Assembly (NCBI GenBank): GCA_001780985.1
Contig: MFJV01000001.1
Span: 37,466 to 101,465, forward strand
Length of the DNA stretch: 64,000 bases
Reading direction: 5' to 3'
From: Candidatus Gottesmanbacteria bacterium RIFCSPLOWO2_01_FULL_43_11b
GTDB lineage: Bacteria; Patescibacteriota; Microgenomatia; UBA10105; UBA927
Below, piece by piece: positions 1,802 through 37,483 of this stretch. The number at the start of each line of letters is the position of its first letter. Within the stretch, counting starts at the first letter, position 1. The position numbers and the translations under genes are program-made. Below the pieces are notes generated by a model. It searched no databases. It was not told where the DNA came from and saw nothing but the letters and a program-made list of their open reading frames with translations.

Positions 1802-3466
1802 ATGGAAGAAAAAAAGGAAGAAGAGCCAAAAGAACTCCTCACACTTACCAAACAAGTTGACCAGATGGTCCACTCATTTGAGGTGGGAATCCGTGAAACG
1901 AAAAAGAAAGAAACACCGATGCATGTGGATGAAATTGCCTCGAGAATTGCAAAATTTTATGAAATGGTAAGGAAAGTTATTGACTGGAAAGAAGATAATG
2001 TCCTTCGTCGTGCCGCAATCGTTCGAATTCTCAAACGCCTGCTTTTCCCAAAAATAAGCGGTGTATCACTGCGGCCTGATATTGATACATATCGAATTGC
2101 CTATAGTGTCACTGCAGATCTTATTCGCGGCGGGCATCTACCCAATGATGAAATTCCGCAGGAGAGCGTTCTCCTGGTCGAGACTGCAGTAAAGAAATAC
2201 CTCCACATTTTAAAACATGCATCATTTGCAACTGCTGATCCGCTTTTGGTTAAGAGAAAAATAAACTTTACGACGTTTCTTATAGACCTTGCTGCCTGTG
2301 AAATCGAAGAAATCCTTACTAACCCCATAAAAGAACGAGCAATTATTCAGACCATGACAGAACTCATGACAGAACGGATTATCGTTTTACCCGAGGGGAG
2401 CATGAATGACGACGAAAAACGAACGCATGTGTTTATTGCCATTTGCCGAACGCTCTATGAGCTTGATGATGAATTTATTATTTACCAACTCTTAAAATTC
2501 AGTTACCCCGGGTGGCATAATCCGGATGCGGAGCAACTTAAAAAACTGACAGAAGAGGTACCAAAAATTTGGAAATCATCAGATTCAATTCTCGATCATC
2601 CGCTTGCACGACAATTCTATACAATCTGTGAACGCGTCGATACAATCTTCATGCTTTTGGGAGATATCTTAGATAAATATGTTGAGGAACCCAAAAAATT
2701 AAAAGAGGCGCTGCAGGAAAAAAATGAATTAACCAAGTTAGCAACGGAAGCTTACGATAAACGGTACAAAACCCTCAAAACCAGGCTTGTTCGACTTGCC
2801 ATATTTTCGACCCTATCTGTATTTCTTTCCAATTGGGTGACGTTTTATATTATCGAAGTACCGCTTGCCGAAGTTTTTTATGAAGGATTCAACTTGTTTA
2901 CGGCATTTATTGACTTCCTCATCCCCACTGCTCTTATGTTTATTCTTGTTGCCATTATCAGGCCTCCGCCCGAGCAGAATGCAAAACGGGTACTTTCCAC
3001 CCTCTATCGATTTGTCTATGAGGATGAAAAGAAACCACTCTTTGAAGTGAGATTACGCAAACGAAGGAACATCTTTTTCACCTTTATCGTCGCTTTCTTA
3101 TATTTTGCAATGATGTTTTTAGTATTGGGTGGAGTTTGGTATATTTTCTATTTCTTCAAACTCCCAATAACATCAGTATTTTTTGATACATTCACGATTG
3201 CGCTTACTATTTTTGCCGCAGTACTCATCCGTAATAAAGCCCGGGAACTCTCAGTTGATGATCGGACAACATTCTGGGAATTTATTCTCGATATGTTTTC
3301 CGTTCCGGTTGCTAAAATAGGGGAGTTTTTAGCTGCAAAATGGAAAGAATACAACATCATTGCAATTTTATTCACCTTCCTAATCGAAACGCCGTTCGTA
3401 GTTGTACTTGATTTTATCGAAAACTGGAGCCAATACCTCAAGGAGCGGCGGAGCGAACTACACTAA
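1802..3466 (+). CDS. Hypothetical protein: soluble N-terminal domain plus about 5 C-terminal transmembrane helices
   Basis: Long ORF with hydrophobic C-terminal segments; no motif recognised. Confidence 0.45.
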   Translation: MEEKKEEEPKELLTLTKQVDQMVHSFEVGIRETKKKETPMHVDEIASRIAKFYEMVRKVIDWKEDNVLRRAAIVRILKRLLFPKISGVSLRPDIDTYRIAYSVTADLIRGGHLPNDEIPQESVLLVETAVKKYLHILKHASFATADPLLVKRKINFTTFLIDLAACEIEEILTNPIKERAIIQTMTELMTERIIVLPEGSMNDDEKRTHVFIAICRTLYELDDEFIIYQLLKFSYPGWHNPDAEQLKKLTEEVPKIWKSSDSILDHPLARQFYTICERVDTIFMLLGDILDKYVEEPKKLKEALQEKNELTKLATEAYDKRYKTLKTRLVRLAIFSTLSVFLSNWVTFYIIEVPLAEVFYEGFNLFTAFIDFLIPTALMFILVAIIRPPPEQNAKRVLSTLYRFVYEDEKKPLFEVRLRKRRNIFFTFIVAFLYFAMMFLVLGGVWYIFYFFKLPITSVFFDTFTIALTIFAAVLIRNKARELSVDDRTTFWEFILDMFSVPVAKIGEFLAAKWKEYNIIAILFTFLIETPFVVVLDFIENWSQYLKERRSELH

Positions 3467-4346
3467 CTTTATAAATTGAAAGGACGAGCGCCAGAACTCC
3501 AAGTATTTGAGTGGGAGATAGTGGTTTATGGAAATAAGTGTAATCCAAAACCACTGCAGAAAGTGGCCAGGCAAGTTCACAGATGGTTGCGATCCGGGCA
3601 GGTGTTCGTTTGAGACCGTAGTAGTAAATAGAAAGTGCAACCATTCCTGTTGAAAGAGCGATTGCAACCAGTGTCAACCATTGCACCTGTGTGAGTGTCG
3701 GTAAAACTGTATTGTGACCTAAACCTACGACGAGTGCCCCAGCCAGTATCGAGGCAAGACCAAATCTTACAGCAGTTGTTAAAAGTGTCGGGAGTCGGAG
3801 TAAGGCGTACCGGCTAAATACTGTTGAAGACCCCCAGGAAAAAGCTGCTCCGATTGCAAAAAGCGCTGCCATTGTTGTTCCGCTTCCTGTGGAAAGATTC
3901 ACCTGTAAATTTGGAAATGATATGAAATACGCAGCAATAAGGGCGGTAATAAACCAGGGGATATAAGCACGGGATAGTTTTTCCTTGAGAATTATCCGTG
4001 CAAATAGTAATACTACGAACGGCTCCAATTGCTGTAAAAGCACAACCACGGAAAATTGTGCAAACTGAACGAGTCCTAAAGCCGAAGTATATAATACCGT
4101 TCCCATAATACTTGAAAGCACTGTTACCCAGGCAAACGCTCCCCAGGTTTTGATGGATATTTTTTTTAATAAATAGCTTTTGTTAAAAACAATGGGGACA
4201 AGGAAGATAAATCCGATGAGGTGTTCTAAAAATACAACAACGATTGGGGGGAGGGAGTATAAACTTACGCGCAGTAATCCGTCAAAACTCCAAAGAAGAG
4301 CTGCAAGAACAACAAAAACCGGTCCGATTGAAAGGACTTTTTTCAT
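3438..4346 (-). CDS. EamA/DMT-family permease (10 TM); candidate ImpX-like riboflavin transporter given the upstream riboswitch-like leader
   Basis: 302 aa, about 10 hydrophobic helices with two EamA-like halves. Preceded on the minus strand by a structured 5' UTR. Confidence 0.65.
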   Translation of the reverse strand: MKKVLSIGPVFVVLAALLWSFDGLLRVSLYSLPPIVVVFLEHLIGFIFLVPIVFNKSYLLKKISIKTWGAFAWVTVLSSIMGTVLYTSALGLVQFAQFSVVVLLQQLEPFVVLLFARIILKEKLSRAYIPWFITALIAAYFISFPNLQVNLSTGSGTTMAALFAIGAAFSWGSSTVFSRYALLRLPTLLTTAVRFGLASILAGALVVGLGHNTVLPTLTQVQWLTLVAIALSTGMVALSIYYYGLKRTPARIATICELAWPLSAVVLDYTYFHKPLSPTQILGVLALVLSIYKVSVVRSAAP

Positions 4347-4391
4347 ATTCCTTCTTTTCCCCCGCTTCCTCTATCATTTCGATAGTTCTCT

Positions 4392-4556
4392 AGCGGGGTT
4401 ATCCCGTTTTTAACGGGACATCCCGACTGTACGGTCGGCCTACGTATTTCGCGTAGTCATGTCCTATTATGGACTCGTGGGCTTTAACCACCGATTGGGA
4501 CTTCCTGCCCTCCGTAGCTTTATGCGAAGGACGGGTCACCCTACCCCGAAGGATAC
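4392..4556 (-). promoter_or_regulatory. FMN riboswitch (RFN element)-like aptamer in the 5' UTR of the EamA transporter
   Basis: Minus-strand RNA reads CCUUCGGGGUAGGGUGA ... AAGCCCACGAGUCC ... CUACGCGAAAUACGUAGGCCGACCGUACAGUCGGGAUG ... closing helix ACCCCGC. The order and sequence of these segments resemble the conserved RFN blocks CUUCGGGGCAGGGUGA / AGCCCGUGACC / GCCGACAGUGAAAGUCUGGAUG. An RBS-proximal hairpin follows. Confidence 0.45.
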
Positions 4557-4561
4557 GTTTA

Positions 4562-4590
4562 TGCTATACCTTTGTGGGAATACCAGTCAA
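4562..4590 (-). promoter_or_regulatory. Sigma70-type promoter (TTGACT-16-TATAGC) driving the riboswitch-EamA transcript
   Basis: Hexamers read on the minus strand immediately upstream of the structured leader. Confidence 0.4.
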
Positions 4591-4602
4591 GAGGTTATCC
4601 GT

Positions 4603-4631
4603 TTGATACGCTTTCTTATCTACGATATACT
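4603..4631 (+). promoter_or_regulatory. Sigma70-type promoter (TTGATA-17-TATACT) for the GIY-YIG gene and tRNA-His
   Basis: Good -35/-10 hexamers with 17-bp spacing. A GC-rich hairpin (4655-4697) lies in the 5' UTR. Confidence 0.45.
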
Positions 4632-4705
4632 ATCGGTATTGGTGGCCCCTGCCCGCCATCGCAAGCATGAGCTTGCTCAGGCGTTGCGGGCGGGGTAGCT
4701 CATTG

Positions 4706-4942: not shown

Positions 4943-4944
4943 TT

Positions 4945-5018
4945 GGTGGCGTGTGCCGAACGGCTTAGGCGTCTGCTTGTGGAGCAGATTTTAGCGGGTT
5001 CAACTCCCGTACGCCACC
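4945..5018 (+). tRNA. tRNA-His(GTG) with the extra G-1 paired to C73; CCA is encoded
   Basis: Acceptor GTGGCGT/ACGCCAC with a preceding G pairing to discriminator C. Anticodon stem TCTGC/GCAGA, loop TTGTGGA. T-arm GCGGG-TTCAACT-CCCGT. CCA follows at 5019-5021. Confidence 0.8.
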
Positions 5019-5056
5019 CCAAAATATCAGCTATGTTATGCTATAATGTCGTTACT

Positions 5057-5296
5057 ATGAAAATTAAGAAATTAGACTACTTGATTGAGTTAACGTACGA
5101 CGCATCTTACAAAGGTTACGTTGCGGATGTCGTTAATTTGTTTGGCTGCATGTCTCAAGGAAAGACGAAAAAGGAAGCGTTAGCGAACGCTGAAAAAGCG
5201 ATTAAAGCCTATATGAAAGTACTCGTCAAAACCGGTAAGAATACTGACATTGTTCGAAGAAGCGTCGGCACTCCAATGCCGGTGGCATATGCCTAA
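5057..5296 (+). CDS. hicB: HicB-family antitoxin (UPF0150)
   Basis: 80 aa. YLIELTYDASYKGYVADVVNLFGCMSQGKTKKEALANAEKAIKAYMK matches the HicB N-terminal RNase-H-like-fold pattern. It overlaps the downstream hicA by 8 nt. The upstream in-frame extension is actually tRNA-His. Confidence 0.6.
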   Translation: MKIKKLDYLIELTYDASYKGYVADVVNLFGCMSQGKTKKEALANAEKAIKAYMKVLVKTGKNTDIVRRSVGTPMPVAYA

Positions 5297-29269: not shown

Positions 29270-29371
29270 TGATGGTTTTCTTAAATATGGGGAGCTCGTG
29301 AAACGGGCTGAGAGTTCCGTCAGTAGACGGATGACCCTTTGAACCTGTTCGGATAATGCCGGCGGAGGGAC

Positions 29372-30064
29372 ATGAACGTAGAACGCGTATTTCTCAAACG
29401 AATCGATAAAGCAAATCTCGTGTGTCAACAACACCAAATTTGTAACCACGACCACAAGCATCACAAACGCGTTCTTGAAAACGCACTTGTTATAAACAGC
29501 ATCCTACCAAAACCTTTTAACGAACGGGATATACATACACTTGTTCTCGGCCATGACATCGGCTATAGTTGCCAAGGAATTGTCTGGGTAGGGAAAAATG
29601 CTATTAATCATGCTCAACGAGGTAATGAAGTTCTCAAACGCGCTGCGACAATATTTCTGAGAGGCCAAGAAAAAATCGCCGTAGTCGCGCTTATTAATAC
29701 ACTCCCCACAAACACAAAAGAAGCCATAGCACGTCTTGAGGCAACCGATCCTCTTCCTGCCGCAATTAAACTGGCTGATTGTCTAGACTACTTTCACACT
29801 GATCGTGTCAAGCATGTCCCTCAACCCTATCCTGACGAACATAACTACTACTTTTTAGCTAAGAGTGTTACGTCATACACAATCCATAACGAAGCACCCA
29901 AAACACTCGCATGGACCATTGATCTCAAGCCGGGCGTCGACAAAACCTTGTGGGAGTCGACCGCACAAGCAAATTTTCAACAAATTTTTACTCTTGCAGA
30001 ACTCTTTGCACAACGACTGCATTTTACATTTCGACTCGCATTGACATTGAATGGGGAGGCATGA
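29372..30064 (+). CDS. Hypothetical protein, possibly an HD-domain phosphohydrolase
   Basis: H..H...LVLGHDIGY...D pattern compatible with an HD domain. Weak. Confidence 0.3.
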   Translation: MNVERVFLKRIDKANLVCQQHQICNHDHKHHKRVLENALVINSILPKPFNERDIHTLVLGHDIGYSCQGIVWVGKNAINHAQRGNEVLKRAATIFLRGQEKIAVVALINTLPTNTKEAIARLEATDPLPAAIKLADCLDYFHTDRVKHVPQPYPDEHNYYFLAKSVTSYTIHNEAPKTLAWTIDLKPGVDKTLWESTAQANFQQIFTLAELFAQRLHFTFRLALTLNGEA

Positions 30065-36289: not shown

Positions 36290-37483
36290 ATGAAGAAAAC
36301 CATTGTTGTTGGTGTAACCGGAGGGATTGCGGCGTATAAGATGGTTGAGCTTGTCGAAAAATTGAAAACACAGGGAAATCGGACGGTTGTGGTCATGACA
36401 CCGAGTGCGATGAAGATTACATCCTCCAAAGATTTTGAAAAAGCATCCGGAGAAAAAGTCATCAGTGAATTATTTCAAAAAAACTTTGATTACAGAAAAA
36501 TACTGAAAGCGCGAAAAGTCGAACATATTAGTTTGGTACAATCAGCCAATCTTATTGTTATCGCTCCGGCAACAGCAAATATCATTGCAAAACTTGCGCA
36601 GGGAATTGCAGATGATTATCTAACCACAAGTATACTTGCTGCAACATGTCCTATTATCATTTGTCCTTCGATGAACGTGTATATGTGGCATCATCCTGCA
36701 ACGCAAAAAAATATTTCAATTCTTAAATCTTTCGGTTACCACATTATTGATCCTGATTCGGGAATGCTTGCATGCGGCTATGAAGGGCAGGGAAGGCTCG
36801 CAGCAATCGAAACGATTTTGCAGCAAATTAACAATTTAACAAAATTAACGAAACAACTTCAAGGGAAAAGGATAGTAGTTACCGCCGGCGGAACCAGGGA
36901 ACCGATTGATGATGTCCGCTTTATTACGAATAAAAGTTCAGGCAAAATGGGAGCTGCAATTGCCGAAAGCGCGTATTTGCGGGGAGCTGATGTATTGCTT
37001 CTTCGTGCAAAAACGTCTGTTAAACCGCGACTGGATATAAAGGAAAAACTTTTTGAAACTGCGGATGATTTAGAAAAATTATTATTAAAAGAAATTCGTG
37101 ACTACGATATTTGTATCCACACTGCCGCTGTGTCGGATTTTTCTATAAAGAATATTAAAGGAAAGTTATCGAGTGATGAAAAACATACGGTTATTTTAGA
37201 ACCGCGTCAAAAAATTCTTGATCAAATAAAAAGAGTAAACCCAAAAATATTTCTTGTCGCTTTTAAAGCTGAAGTCGGATTATCGGATAAACAACTCCTT
37301 GAAAAAGCGAGAAAAATTCAAGCAAACATGATTGTTGCTAATCACGTAGGCAGATCTGACCGGGGTTTCGAATCCGATAACAATGAAGTGTTTATCCTTG
37401 GTAAAACCATCCGTCATGTTCTGCTCTCCCCAAAATCTGTCGTTTCCGAAATAATACTCGATGAAATCGTTCGCGCCTGCTAA
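36290..37483 (+). CDS. coaBC: Bifunctional phosphopantothenoylcysteine decarboxylase / phosphopantothenate-cysteine ligase
   Basis: N-terminal flavoprotein domain (VGVTGGIAAYK, PAMN-like) and C-terminal CoaB domain. Confidence 0.85.
   Translation: MKKTIVVGVTGGIAAYKMVELVEKLKTQGNRTVVVMTPSAMKITSSKDFEKASGEKVISELFQKNFDYRKILKARKVEHISLVQSANLIVIAPATANIIAKLAQGIADDYLTTSILAATCPIIICPSMNVYMWHHPATQKNISILKSFGYHIIDPDSGMLACGYEGQGRLAAIETILQQINNLTKLTKQLQGKRIVVTAGGTREPIDDVRFITNKSSGKMGAAIAESAYLRGADVLLLRAKTSVKPRLDIKEKLFETADDLEKLLLKEIRDYDICIHTAAVSDFSIKNIKGKLSSDEKHTVILEPRQKILDQIKRVNPKIFLVAFKAEVGLSDKQLLEKARKIQANMIVANHVGRSDRGFESDNNEVFILGKTIRHVLLSPKSVVSEIILDEIVRAC

Follow-up and report, generated by a model that had tools for sequence, protein, structure and literature searches.

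The closest described counterpart of the locus analysed here is the impX leader of Fusobacterium nucleatum, whose FMN aptamer (RF00050; PDB 3F2Q) is a six-helix junction with long-range C31-G84 and G32-C83 pairs and with FMN-contacting nucleotides in J1/2, J3/4, J4/5, J5/6 and J6/1. This riboswitch accompanies a monocistronic gene for a DMT transporter that has been shown to take up riboflavin, and every bacterium in which impX has been found is also a riboflavin producer (PMC4418817). COG0697 genes are a common FMN riboswitch association (PMC6298564; Atilho, Perkins & Breaker 2019). The same study describes two variant subtypes, 1 and 2, that place an FMN-like scaffold 5' of a transporter gene and that the general FMN model readily mis-scores; in these, the contacting guanines are replaced, typically by A, FMN is rejected, and the associated genes encode COG3601 proteins or MFS/MATE efflux systems. 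The classic hosts of FMN riboswitches are Fusobacteria, Firmicutes or Proteobacteria, and a literature search for such elements in CPR/Patescibacteria returned nothing relevant.

The 64,000-nucleotide stretch of DNA analysed here (the window) looks, in contrast to those classic hosts, like part of the genome of a Patescibacteria/Microgenomates-type bacterium. On its minus strand, positions 4344-4557 form what, judged from the sequence, appears to be a genuine FMN riboswitch aptamer 5' of an EamA/DMT gene (Table 1). The most likely reading of the locus is that this leader is a switch that stops an ImpX-like riboflavin importer from being translated, the host being a CPR-type bacterium with a reduced genome; we hold with good confidence the joint claim that the gene is monocistronic, that its riboswitch is of the RFN/RF00050 class and senses FMN, and that it acts as an OFF switch at translation. 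The system is of a known kind, and the leader is a new, insertion-bearing FMN riboswitch, which standard annotation misses because of three extra hairpins inserted into it.

Table 1. Features of the transporter gene and its leader in the window
Feature	Positions	Strand	Evidence
EamA/DMT transporter gene, 302 aa, ImpX-like putative riboflavin importer	3438-4346	-	Pfam EamA, E 9e-32, two domains
-35-like hexamer TTGACT	4585-4590	-	Promoter scan; consensus match only
-10-like region TATAGCAT, with overlapping TATAGC (4568-4563) and TAGCAT (4566-4561)	4561-4568	-	Promoter scan
P1 5' strand CGUAUCCUUC, core UAUCCUUC at 4555-4548	4548-4557	-	MFE pairing with 4354-4344
CCUUCGGGGUAGGGUGA	4552-4536	-	String confirmed
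J1/2 GGGGUA; G10-G12 (4546-4544), FMN phosphate-contacting guanines	4542-4547	-	G in 59-60 of 60 relatives
P2, GGG 4541-4539 with CCC 4499-4497; loop UGA...AAGU interrupted by insertion	4497-4541	-	
Inserted L2 hairpin, 32 nt, CCCGUCCUUCG-CAUAAAGCUA-CGGAGGGCAGG	4504-4535	-	Stem predicted in every fold
C31-G32, long-range 2-bp helix with C4437-G4436; G32 contacts FMN	4492-4493	-	CG/CG invariant in 60/60 relatives
P3 GUGG-UUAAAGC-CCAC	4477-4491	-	Aligned to RF00050 P3; GC to AU covariation in both directions
AAGCCCACGAGUCC, P3 3' strand, J3/4 and P4 5' strand	4484-4471	-	String confirmed
J3/4 GA; A48 (4475), flavin-stacking adenine	4475-4476	-	A in 60/60 relatives
P4 GUCC-AUAAUA-GGAC	4461-4474	-	4/4 pairs covary
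J4/5 AUGA; G62 at 4458	4457-4460	-	G and A each in 60/60 relatives
P5 CUACG-CGAAAUA-CGUAG	4440-4456	-	5/5 pairs covary; 99.3% of cells paired
J5/6 GC, C83-G84 and A85 (G84 4436, A85 4435)	4435-4439	-	G84 in 60/60, A85 in 56/60 relatives
P6 CCG-UACAGU-CGG	4423-4434	-	Covariance-model alignment and relatives' alignment
GCCGACCGUACAGUCGGGAUG, J5/6, P6 and first part of J6/1	4439-4419	-	String confirmed
J6/1 first part GAUG; A99 (4421), flavin-pairing adenine	4419-4422	-	A in 50/59 relatives
Inserted J6/1 hairpin A, UGUCCCGUU-AAA-AACGGGAUA	4400-4420	-	Fold z -6.25 for whole insert
Inserted J6/1 hairpin B, CCCCGCU...AGCGGGG, inner stem CUAUC/GAUAG	4360-4398	-	Folds
J6/1 last part (G)AAAA	4355-4359	-	All relatives, whether or not they have the insertion, show AAA(A) before the P1 3' strand
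P1 3' strand GAAGGAAUAUG, purine-rich ribosome-binding site and AUG (4346-4344)	4344-4354	-	MFE, partition function

The aptamer core and its relatives

As in the Fusobacterium aptamer, helices P1 to P6 can all be drawn round one junction in the window, together with the 2-bp helix of C31-G84 and G32-C83. All nine ligand-contacting nucleotides listed in PMC6298564 (G10, G11, G12, G32, A48, G62, G84, A85 and A99; numbering verified on the Fusobacterium impX aptamer) are canonical, and seven of them are conserved in 59 or 60 of the 60 aligned relatives, with A85 and A99 somewhat less so (Table 1). With its insertion taken out, P2 reads GGGUGA plus AAGUCCC, which is the consensus GGGUGaAAUUCCC, and the helix shows exchanges between GC and UA pairs in relatives. 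P1 likewise covaries in relatives, with change on both sides in 7 of 8 pairs.

The first-pass annotation of this DNA had recognized several FMN-like blocks in RFN order, all of which lie on the minus strand as quoted, and the hairpin it had placed among them is P5. It had also taken the leader to diverge at several points, and these disappear once the insertions are allowed for. The block CCGGCGGUA, thought to be missing, is present as AUCGGUGGUUA at 4495-4485, displaced by the hairpin in L2; and the block GGAUGGGAGA, thought to be replaced, keeps its GGAUG (4423-4419), with the remainder, AAAA-GAAGGA, about 60 nt downstream past the two inserted hairpins. The closing helix had been read as CGGGG/CCCCG, which has to give way to a P1 of (CG)UAUCCUUC with GAAGG-AAUA(UG). 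The CGGGG/CCCCG pairing is not conserved in relatives, is about 9 kcal/mol worse than P1 plus hairpin B in the full-length leader and is absent from 127,310 suboptimal structures within 6 kcal/mol; it is the minimum free energy structure only for a nascent transcript ending at 4361.

Related loci were collected by a metagenome search with a protein alignment (80 loci) and by a single-protein search of genome contigs (3 loci). A covariance model built from these relatives (R1) matches 67 of 84 sources, a count that includes four partial matches truncated by contig ends and the window itself, and the matches in related loci sit just upstream of the orthologous transporter gene. CPR metagenomes contain orthologues of the transporter with 45-80% identity. 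About 60 orthologous genes in CPR/Microgenomates metagenomes bear the element, and its simple forms score 73-107 bits with RF00050, above the gathering score. The six-helix structure covaries in both alignments that were made. The share of paired cells in the seed of 22 sequences is 94.7%, whereas shuffles reach 79.6% and slid controls 38-52%; in the 60-sequence alignment the value is 93.5%, compared with 75.8% in shuffles, and both sides change in 23 of 30 pairs. The proposal of an FMN riboswitch is thus borne out by an Rfam match (below), by conservation of the leader and by covariation, so that neither a lack of match nor a lack of conservation speaks against it.

Inserted hairpins and covariance-model scores

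When the whole window is compared with Rfam at the gathering score, no FMN match is returned. The RF00050 model applied in E-value mode to a 451-nt stretch gives 55.3 bits (E 5.8e-12), the sole significant Rfam match; the RF00050 check suggested beforehand is therefore positive as to the match and negative as to the gathering score of 66.2 bits, of which the leader falls short by 11 bits; that score is an operational threshold and not a property of the biology. R1 gives 65.7 bits (E 7e-13), which is among the lowest R1 scores. Both values put the resemblance to the FMN blocks far beyond chance.

The sub-threshold score is due to the 32-nt hairpin in L2 and the two hairpins in J6/1 (about 60 nt), not to core substitutions; the Fusobacterium aptamer differs from the window in lacking these insertions. 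Compared by pairwise identity rather than by Infernal score, the insertion-excised core is 85-86% identical to two leaders that reach 98.7 and 106.8 bits with RF00050 (L008 and L021) and 70% identical to the impX aptamer of Fusobacterium vincentii. Among the 17 relatives tested with RF00050, those without a J6/1 insertion score 68-107 bits, except for one at 65.9 (L004), and those with the insertion score 45-66 bits, all below threshold.

P3 to P6 of the window are aligned by both models. P1 and P2 are lost by both and were assigned by manual alignment plus thermodynamic folding. RF00050 mishandles this region by aligning the 3' arm of the L2 insert (ACGGAGGGCAGG) as J1/2. R1 chooses GGGAUAA (4405-4399) as the P1 3' strand, a placement rejected here because it leaves U7 and C8 unpaired, requires a 17-nt J6/1 and disregards the AAAA-GAAGGA found after the twin hairpins of each of the nine further leaders with this insertion.

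Low scores could also arise if the leader were a specificity-changed FMN variant, like the Clostridium subtypes 1 and 2, that senses riboflavin, lumichrome or another flavin-like compound and controls efflux or some other transporter. In this direction point the sub-threshold RF00050 score, the heavily remodelled J6/1 strand, the exporters included in the DMT superfamily and the weak matches of the protein to the 2A78 and YedA models, as well as pocket changes in some relatives (A85G with G98A in four leaders, AU to UA at A99 in seven). However, what defines the variants is a change from G to A at the guanines that contact phosphate and ribityl (PMC6298564), whereas G10, G11, G12, G32, G62 and G84 are all G in the window and A48, A85 and A99 are all A; it is insertions, not core substitutions, that explain the score deficit. 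Moreover, the gene belongs to COG0697/EamA and not to the families found with subtypes 1 and 2, its product is homologous to the importer ImpX, and a P1 that coincides with the Shine-Dalgarno region gives OFF logic, whereas the tested Clostridium subtype 2 representatives are ON switches. We consider a changed specificity improbable, and infer that the ligand of the leader is FMN.

The insertions of the window have counterparts elsewhere. Seven other leaders (L005, L013, L019, L027, L029, L055 and L058) carry an insertion at the same position in L2. A twin-hairpin insertion in J6/1 occurs in 10 leaders, with differing sequences that all fold as two hairpins (z -2.5 to -9.3), and a counterpart of hairpin A is found in each of the 9 others. 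The twin hairpins always lie between GGA(U)G and AAAA-P1, in translational and terminator-type leaders alike. This recurrence at the same sites indicates that the insertions are tolerated and are not signs of decay.

The possibility that the leader is a decaying relic, in which insertions have disabled sensing and left the gene constitutive or otherwise controlled, has to be weighed against these observations. With three insertions the window carries more than any leader inspected by eye, its R1 score is among the lowest and folding predicts a permanently closed P1. Yet all core helices are intact and all conserved junction nucleotides are present, both insertion types are at sites where independent relatives have structured insertions, the stems show compensating changes, and a permanently closed P1 would silence an intact coding sequence that is 55-80% identical to the listed homologues. 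A non-functional relic is, in our view, hardly probable, and a functional, insertion-bearing riboswitch remains the preferred reading. The J6/1 insertion might nonetheless perturb the binding pocket, as this strand carries A99 and leads into P1.

It is possible, if doubtful, that the twin-hairpin insertion (4420-4360) represents an unrecognized structural subclass of CPR FMN riboswitches, perhaps with a function of its own. If so, curated models would overlook twin-hairpin riboswitches systematically. One conceivable role is that of a delay module, which would put off transcription of the P1 3' strand and the Shine-Dalgarno region long enough for FMN to bind. In addition, folding suggests that the ACCCCG (4399-4394) of the 5' arm of hairpin B can pair alternatively with the CGGGGU (4548-4543) of J1/2 in the nascent transcript; in the window, hairpin B may act as an anti-P1 decoy of this kind, which could supply an ON state that the folding model otherwise lacks.

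Expression platform

The TTGACT and TATAGC strings proposed earlier as the promoter are present, and a promoter scan favours TTGACT-18-TAGCAT (9 of 12 matches), which is a consensus match only. Relatives have TTGAC(A/G/T) at an equal distance from P1. The -10-like region would place the transcription start at about 4554-4556, where P1 begins.

Pairing of 4557-4548 with 4354-4344 is predicted by both the minimum free energy structure and the partition function, and the leader folds better than its shuffles (z = -4.99). In the partition function, positions 4354-4350 and 4347-4344 have an unpaired probability of about 0; for the bulge positions 4349/4348 it is about 0.5. The ribosome-binding site is thus predicted to be sequestered by P1 itself, in place of the separate hairpin that the first-pass annotation had pointed out. 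About 24 of 54 unique relatives share the arrangement, with a P1 3' strand that ends 0-6 nt before the start codon. Since the P1 3' strand contains the ribosome-binding purines and the start codon, an FMN-stabilized P1 should block initiation. When FMN is abundant, the junction would be bound and P1 locked, the initiation region would be double-stranded and the importer would go untranslated; when FMN is scarce, P1 would be unlocked, ribosomes would load and riboflavin would be imported. Nearest-neighbour folding without ligand still predicts the pairing of P1 with the Shine-Dalgarno region (-88.3 kcal/mol, compared with -80.7 kcal/mol for structures lacking P1), and the model alone therefore leaves the ON state unexplained. 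The spacing of 2 nt between GGA and AUG is unusual for a Shine-Dalgarno site.

The direct occlusion of the start codon by P1 in the window differs from the platform of the Fusobacterium leader, which, read by eye, has a terminator-like hairpin with a U-run behind it, both downstream of the aptamer. Control by termination or Rho would therefore have precedents both in Fusobacterium impX and in roughly half of the CPR relatives: in about 25 of 54, a terminator (ACCCCGAAAG...GGGGU-U6) immediately precedes the AUG, with a 5' arm complementary to the P1 5' strand and J1/2. Hairpin B of the window shares the ACCCCG 5' arm, complementary to CGGGGU, and Rho sites could be exposed on a ribosome-free leader. 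However, what comes after hairpin B is GAAAAGAAGG and not a run of U, a scan of the minus strand from 4557 to 4344 found no hairpin with a U-run and no terminator-like site between aptamer and AUG, and the AUG itself lies within the P1 3' strand. Transcriptional control of the window gene thus appears very unlikely, and control of translation initiation is the reading adopted here.

The transporter and FMN-dependent riboflavin uptake

The transporter resembles ImpX of F. nucleatum, and more loosely RibN, in having two EamA domains and about 300 residues and in being encoded by a monocistronic gene downstream of an FMN riboswitch. Its sole strong match in a plasmid collection is a gene of F. 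vincentii, the only place matched in a 2.1-Mb record (38% identity and 56% positives over the full length, residues 8-295; E 2e-52). This gene sits behind a 118-bit FMN riboswitch and is flanked by near-matches to the impX cloning primers of PMC4418817, each with 3 mismatches; it is taken here as the impX locus, and the match supports the earlier guess that the window protein is of the ImpX type. An identity of 38% is no proof of a common substrate, and in the window the protein is best described as a putative riboflavin importer. A search against NCBIfam yielded no riboflavin-specific model; the 2A78 and YedA models matched weakly. The riboswitch directly precedes a gene of the EamA/COG0697 type with homology to ImpX, an arrangement that conforms to the typical association, and OFF logic suits an importer. 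From these features we infer that riboflavin is what the protein brings into the cell. Elsewhere the window codes for CoaBC, a flavoprotein that depends on FMN, which indicates that the organism needs flavins.

None of these results overturns current understanding. They suggest that Rfam gathering cut-offs under-count FMN riboswitches in CPR/Patescibacteria, and they indicate that a module of two hairpins can be fitted into the strand between P6 and P1, where the flavin-pairing A99 lies, a tolerance that is useful for understanding and engineering FMN aptamers. CPR bacteria are generally considered to be without riboflavin biosynthesis pathways. The locus suggests that organisms presumed to obtain their vitamins from outside salvage riboflavin under FMN control by means of an ImpX-like importer, and the range of ImpX would then no longer be limited to the riboflavin-prototrophic phyla of its original description.

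An interrupted FMN aptamer in the transporter leader

At Rfam gathering scores, the scan of the whole window returns five tRNAs and one TPP riboswitch, and no FMN element. In E-value mode, however, the FMN riboswitch model (RF00050) is the only meaningful match to the region 4250-4700 (55.3 bits, E 5.8e-12, below the gathering score of 66.2), every other Rfam match there having E > 1. The strings quoted by the first-pass annotation, which had proposed an FMN-riboswitch-like leader, are all found on the minus strand of the transporter leader; the TATAGC of its promoter is also present, overlapping the TTGACT-18-TAGCAT site that the promoter scan reports. The leader fold is much more stable than its shuffled versions (z = -4.99).

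Relative to the RF00050 consensus, the aptamer core is complete but interrupted at two places (see table), and the low RF00050 score can be attributed to these two insertions. The CCGGCGGUA block that had been thought missing exists as AUCGGUGGUUA in the J2/3-P3 strand, and the helix assignments made earlier are corrected here. In insertion-free relatives, the strand that closes the aptamer reads GGGAUG-AAA-GAAAGAAUAUG; thus, the window retains both halves of J6/1 and the P1 3' strand, about 60 nt apart. Once both insertions are removed in silico, the window sequence shares 85.6% and 85.1% identity with two relatives' leaders, L008 and L021, which score 98.7 and 106.8 bits against RF00050, and 69.8% identity with the impX aptamer of Fusobacterium.

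Features of the riboswitch, the transporter gene and their surroundings in the window
Feature	Position	Strand	Remarks
EamA/DMT transporter ORF, 302 codons	3438-4346	minus	Pfam EamA, E 9e-32, two domains
Sigma-70-like site TTGACT-18-TAGCAT	4590-4561	minus	promoter scan
P1 5' strand UAUCCUUC, then J1/2 GGGGUA, then GGG-UGA	5' side	minus	RF00050 consensus comparison
32-nt inserted hairpin (L2)	4535-4504	minus	after GGG-UGA
AAGU-CCC, remainder of L2 and P2 3' strand	after 32-nt hairpin	minus	
AAUCG-GUGG...CCAC-GA, J2/3, P3 and J3/4	after P2 3' strand	minus	
P4	4474-4461	minus	canonical; aligned by both covariance models with high confidence
AUGA	between P4 and P5	minus	canonical; aligned by both models
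P5	4456-4440	minus	canonical; both models, high confidence
GC-CG-A	between P5 and P6	minus	canonical; both models
P6	4434-4423	minus	canonical; both models, high confidence
GGAUG, first half of J6/1	directly 3' of P6	minus	
Two inserted hairpins in J6/1	4420-4400 and 4398-4360	minus	
(G)AAAA-GAAGGAAUAUG, second half of J6/1 and P1 3' strand	after hairpins	minus	
GC-rich inverted repeat CCCCGCCCGC...GCGGGCAGGGG	about 4640-4690		
GIY-YIG nuclease ORF, 91 aa	4667-4942	plus	E 7e-17; directly upstream of riboswitch promoter
ORF overlapping tRNA gene	4943-5296	plus	weak HicB-like match
tRNA gene	4946-5018	plus	directly upstream of riboswitch promoter
CoaBC, FMN-dependent enzyme	36290-37483		

Relatives with simple leaders, or with an L2 insertion only, score 68-107 bits, above the gathering score. 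One with an insertion in the P3 region (L004) falls just under it at 65.9 bits, and all the leaders tested that carry the J6/1 insertion lie below it: L001 (65.9 bits), L013 (57.7), L035 (57.4), the window (55.3), L019 (54.7) and L030 (45.2).

Conservation of the element and its ligand pocket

Homologues of the transporter are numerous, with 53-80% identity among the matches listed, and the hosts named are Gottesman-, Levy- and Daviesbacteria, Microgenomates or 'Patescibacteria group'. The loci compared comprise 3 from genomes, 80 from metagenomes and 6 further ones for the closest proteins, and most of the relatives' leaders inspected carry the same element as the window. A covariance model (R1) was built from a seed alignment (A2) of 22 simple leaders on which the RF00050 architecture was imposed. 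In this seed, 94.7% of cells are paired (79.6% when shuffled; 38-52% in slid controls) and 19 of 30 pairs have changed on both sides; in a 60-sequence alignment, which was fitted to R1 and is hence biased towards the model's structure, the corresponding values are 93.5%, 75.8%, 39-46% and 23/30. The observed value was matched by 0/500 shuffles on any measure in both alignments. R1 matches 67 of 84 sources, a count that takes in four contig-truncated partial matches and the window itself (65.7 bits, E 7e-13), and in related loci the match lies just upstream of the transporter gene, so the leader is conserved upstream of orthologous transporters.

FMN is contacted by G10, G11, G12, G32, A48, G62, G84, A85 and A99 (PMC6298564), a numbering that we verified on the impX aptamer of Fusobacterium vincentii. 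Of the nine, G10-12, G32, A48, G62 and G84 are each kept in 59-60 of the 60 aligned sequences, A85 in 56/60 and A99 in 50/59, and this conservation argues for FMN as the ligand. The known specificity-changed subtypes 1 and 2 carry G-to-A changes at phosphate and ribityl contacts (PMC6298564); in the window, 9/9 contacts carry the canonical base, which, as far as conservation can tell, argues against its being a variant of altered specificity.

Some relatives depart from the canonical pocket. Four leaders (L022, L024, L030 and L061) have G for A at the flavin-stacking A85 (GCGGCCGU) and A for G at position 98 (GUCGGAAUG; GUCGGAAG in L030), which looks like a coupled swap within the binding pocket. 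Seven others (L003, L004, L005, L011, L012, L088 and L089) read GGGUAUAAAG in J6/1 in place of GGGAUGAAAG, so that U takes the aligned A99 position and an A follows directly after it; these seven may recognise the ligand differently or with a shift of one register.

Inserted hairpins and expression platforms

The J6/1 insertion is carried by the window, L001, L002, L013, L019, L030, L035, L040, L053 and L084. In every carrier it consists of two adjoining hairpins between GGGA(U)G and AAA(A)-P1, which vary in sequence and length (35-80 nt; z -2.5 to -9.3). Since it occurs in both translational and terminator-type leaders, it is part of the aptamer and not of the platform. L2 insertions invariably follow the UGA of the loop (window, L005, L013, L019, L027, L029, L055 and L058), and other relatives have insertions in L3, L5 or L6. 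Such recurrence of structured insertions at fixed sites argues against a decayed relic, that is, a non-functional remnant of an FMN riboswitch.

The window's L2 insert (CCUUCGCAUAAAGCUACGGAGG, 4529-4508, minus strand) is nearly identical to a hairpin inserted elsewhere, on the P3 loop/3' side, in the leader of L004 (CCUUGGCGUAAAGCUACGGGGG, about 95-125), the closest relative in the metagenome scan (78% protein identity). Similar hairpins, CCUUCG...CGAAGGAGG, are found in L2 of L019, L027 and L058, and all of these may represent a recurring or mobile module. Both L068 and L082 have a large structured insertion in L6, similar between the two (CCUUUUA...AAAGGACCCUAAGUACAAACGAAGGG), and in L040 a roughly 40-nt sequence, UUCACCCGCGCAAAUUUCUACGAAAUUUGUUCGGGUAAAG, occurs twice in one aptamer, in L3 and L6.

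In the window, the purine-rich stretch for ribosome binding and the start codon both fall within the P1 3' strand GAAGGAAUAUG (4354-4344). This strand pairs with CGUAUCCUUC (4557-4548) in the MFE fold as well as in the partition function, the latter giving an unpaired probability of ~0 at 4354-4350 and 4347-4344 and ~0.5 at the bulge 4349/4348; a minus-strand scan from the aptamer to the AUG found no terminator-like site. The platform is of the direct-occlusion type: FMN would lock P1, and locked P1 would hide the initiation region and repress the importer. The weak point of this mechanism is that nearest-neighbour energies favour P1 even without ligand (full leader, -88.3 with P1, -80.7 with P1 forbidden and -79.5 kcal/mol with the alternative helix forced). 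A kinetic route to the ON state through nascent pairing of hairpin B is possible, though speculative: in the MFE fold of the transcript ending at 4361, hairpin B pairs through its ACCCCG with CGGGGU of J1/2, and through AGGA/GCG in its 3' arm with the P1 5' strand. This complementarity is not kept in the other insertion-bearing leaders.

The P1 3' strand ends 0-6 nt before the start codon in about 24/54 unique relatives; in about 25/54 a terminator, ...ACCCCGAAAG...GGGGU-U6, lies downstream instead, and the complementarity of its 5' arm and loop to P1-5'/J1-2 (CUUUCGGGGU) makes an antiterminator. A similar logic seems to operate in the Fusobacterium impX leader, where the hairpin 5' arm UUACCCGAA is complementary, as read by eye, to UUCGGG. 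Proteins 78-80% identical to the window's transporter sit behind differing platforms, and platform turnover around the conserved aptamer is rapid. Comparison of L084-L089, L001, L002 and L004, with transporters 74-80% identical to the window's, gives at least three platforms: direct P1/SD occlusion (L004, L085-L088), P1 with a downstream sequestor hairpin CCUUCUU...AAGAAAGG (L084, L089) and a terminator (L001).

The putative importer and its genomic setting

When the plasmid collection was searched by tblastn, one strong match emerged, in a 2.1-Mb Fusobacterium vincentii record. Full-length identity between the matching ORF and the window's transporter is 38% (E 2e-52). The ORF is preceded by an RF00050 match of 118.2 bits and flanked by sites that match, with 3 mismatches each, the primers published for cloning F. 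nucleatum impX (PMC4418817). ImpX rescued an E. coli riboflavin auxotroph (PMC4418817). At the level of homology, these results support the earlier guess of an 'ImpX-type' transporter. COG0697 (EamA/DMT) is among the common FMN-riboswitch associations (PMC6298564).

The F. vincentii replicon (NZ_CP084075.1, L090) is chromosome-size, essentially unannotated and filed as a plasmid. The MAG contigs CAYUKU010000017.1, CAZKLT010000005.1 and CAYIWI010000041.1 (L001-L003) are titled 'uncultured Gammaproteobacteria', and their transporter and leader group with sequences of CPR (Patescibacteria/Microgenomates-type bacteria); both labels look wrong. Convergent with the transporter in L089 (1626-2060, minus) and L084 (1626-2069, minus) is a gene whose small product, about 145 aa long, is of PNPOx_N type (FMN-binding split-barrel family) in L089, and the neighbourhood of these transporters may be flavin-related. 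In the window, the corresponding place is taken by an ORF of 554 aa that is unrelated.

Other window genes include sortases, type IV pilus genes, aminoacyl-tRNA synthetases, DUF5660 and many Pfam-less ORFs, a content that fits a CPR genome. The TPP riboswitch (29278-29387, plus; 61.7 bits, gathering score 54.3) overlaps the start of a 230-aa ORF (29372-30064, plus). The N-terminal stretch of the ORF's product is rich in His and Cys (HQICNHDHKHHK); it matches no Pfam family at E <= 0.001, lacks any predicted membrane segment and is not obviously a protein of thiamine biosynthesis or transport.

Our analysis confirms the FMN-riboswitch observation and supports its interpretation: the riboswitch most likely controls an ImpX-like putative importer by P1/start-site occlusion. 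No paper on FMN riboswitches in CPR was found in the literature searched. The element joins a well-known riboswitch class as a new representative, and its sole unusual aspect is the insertions, especially the twin J6/1 hairpins, which are found again in CPR relatives and bring scores below the curated Rfam threshold.
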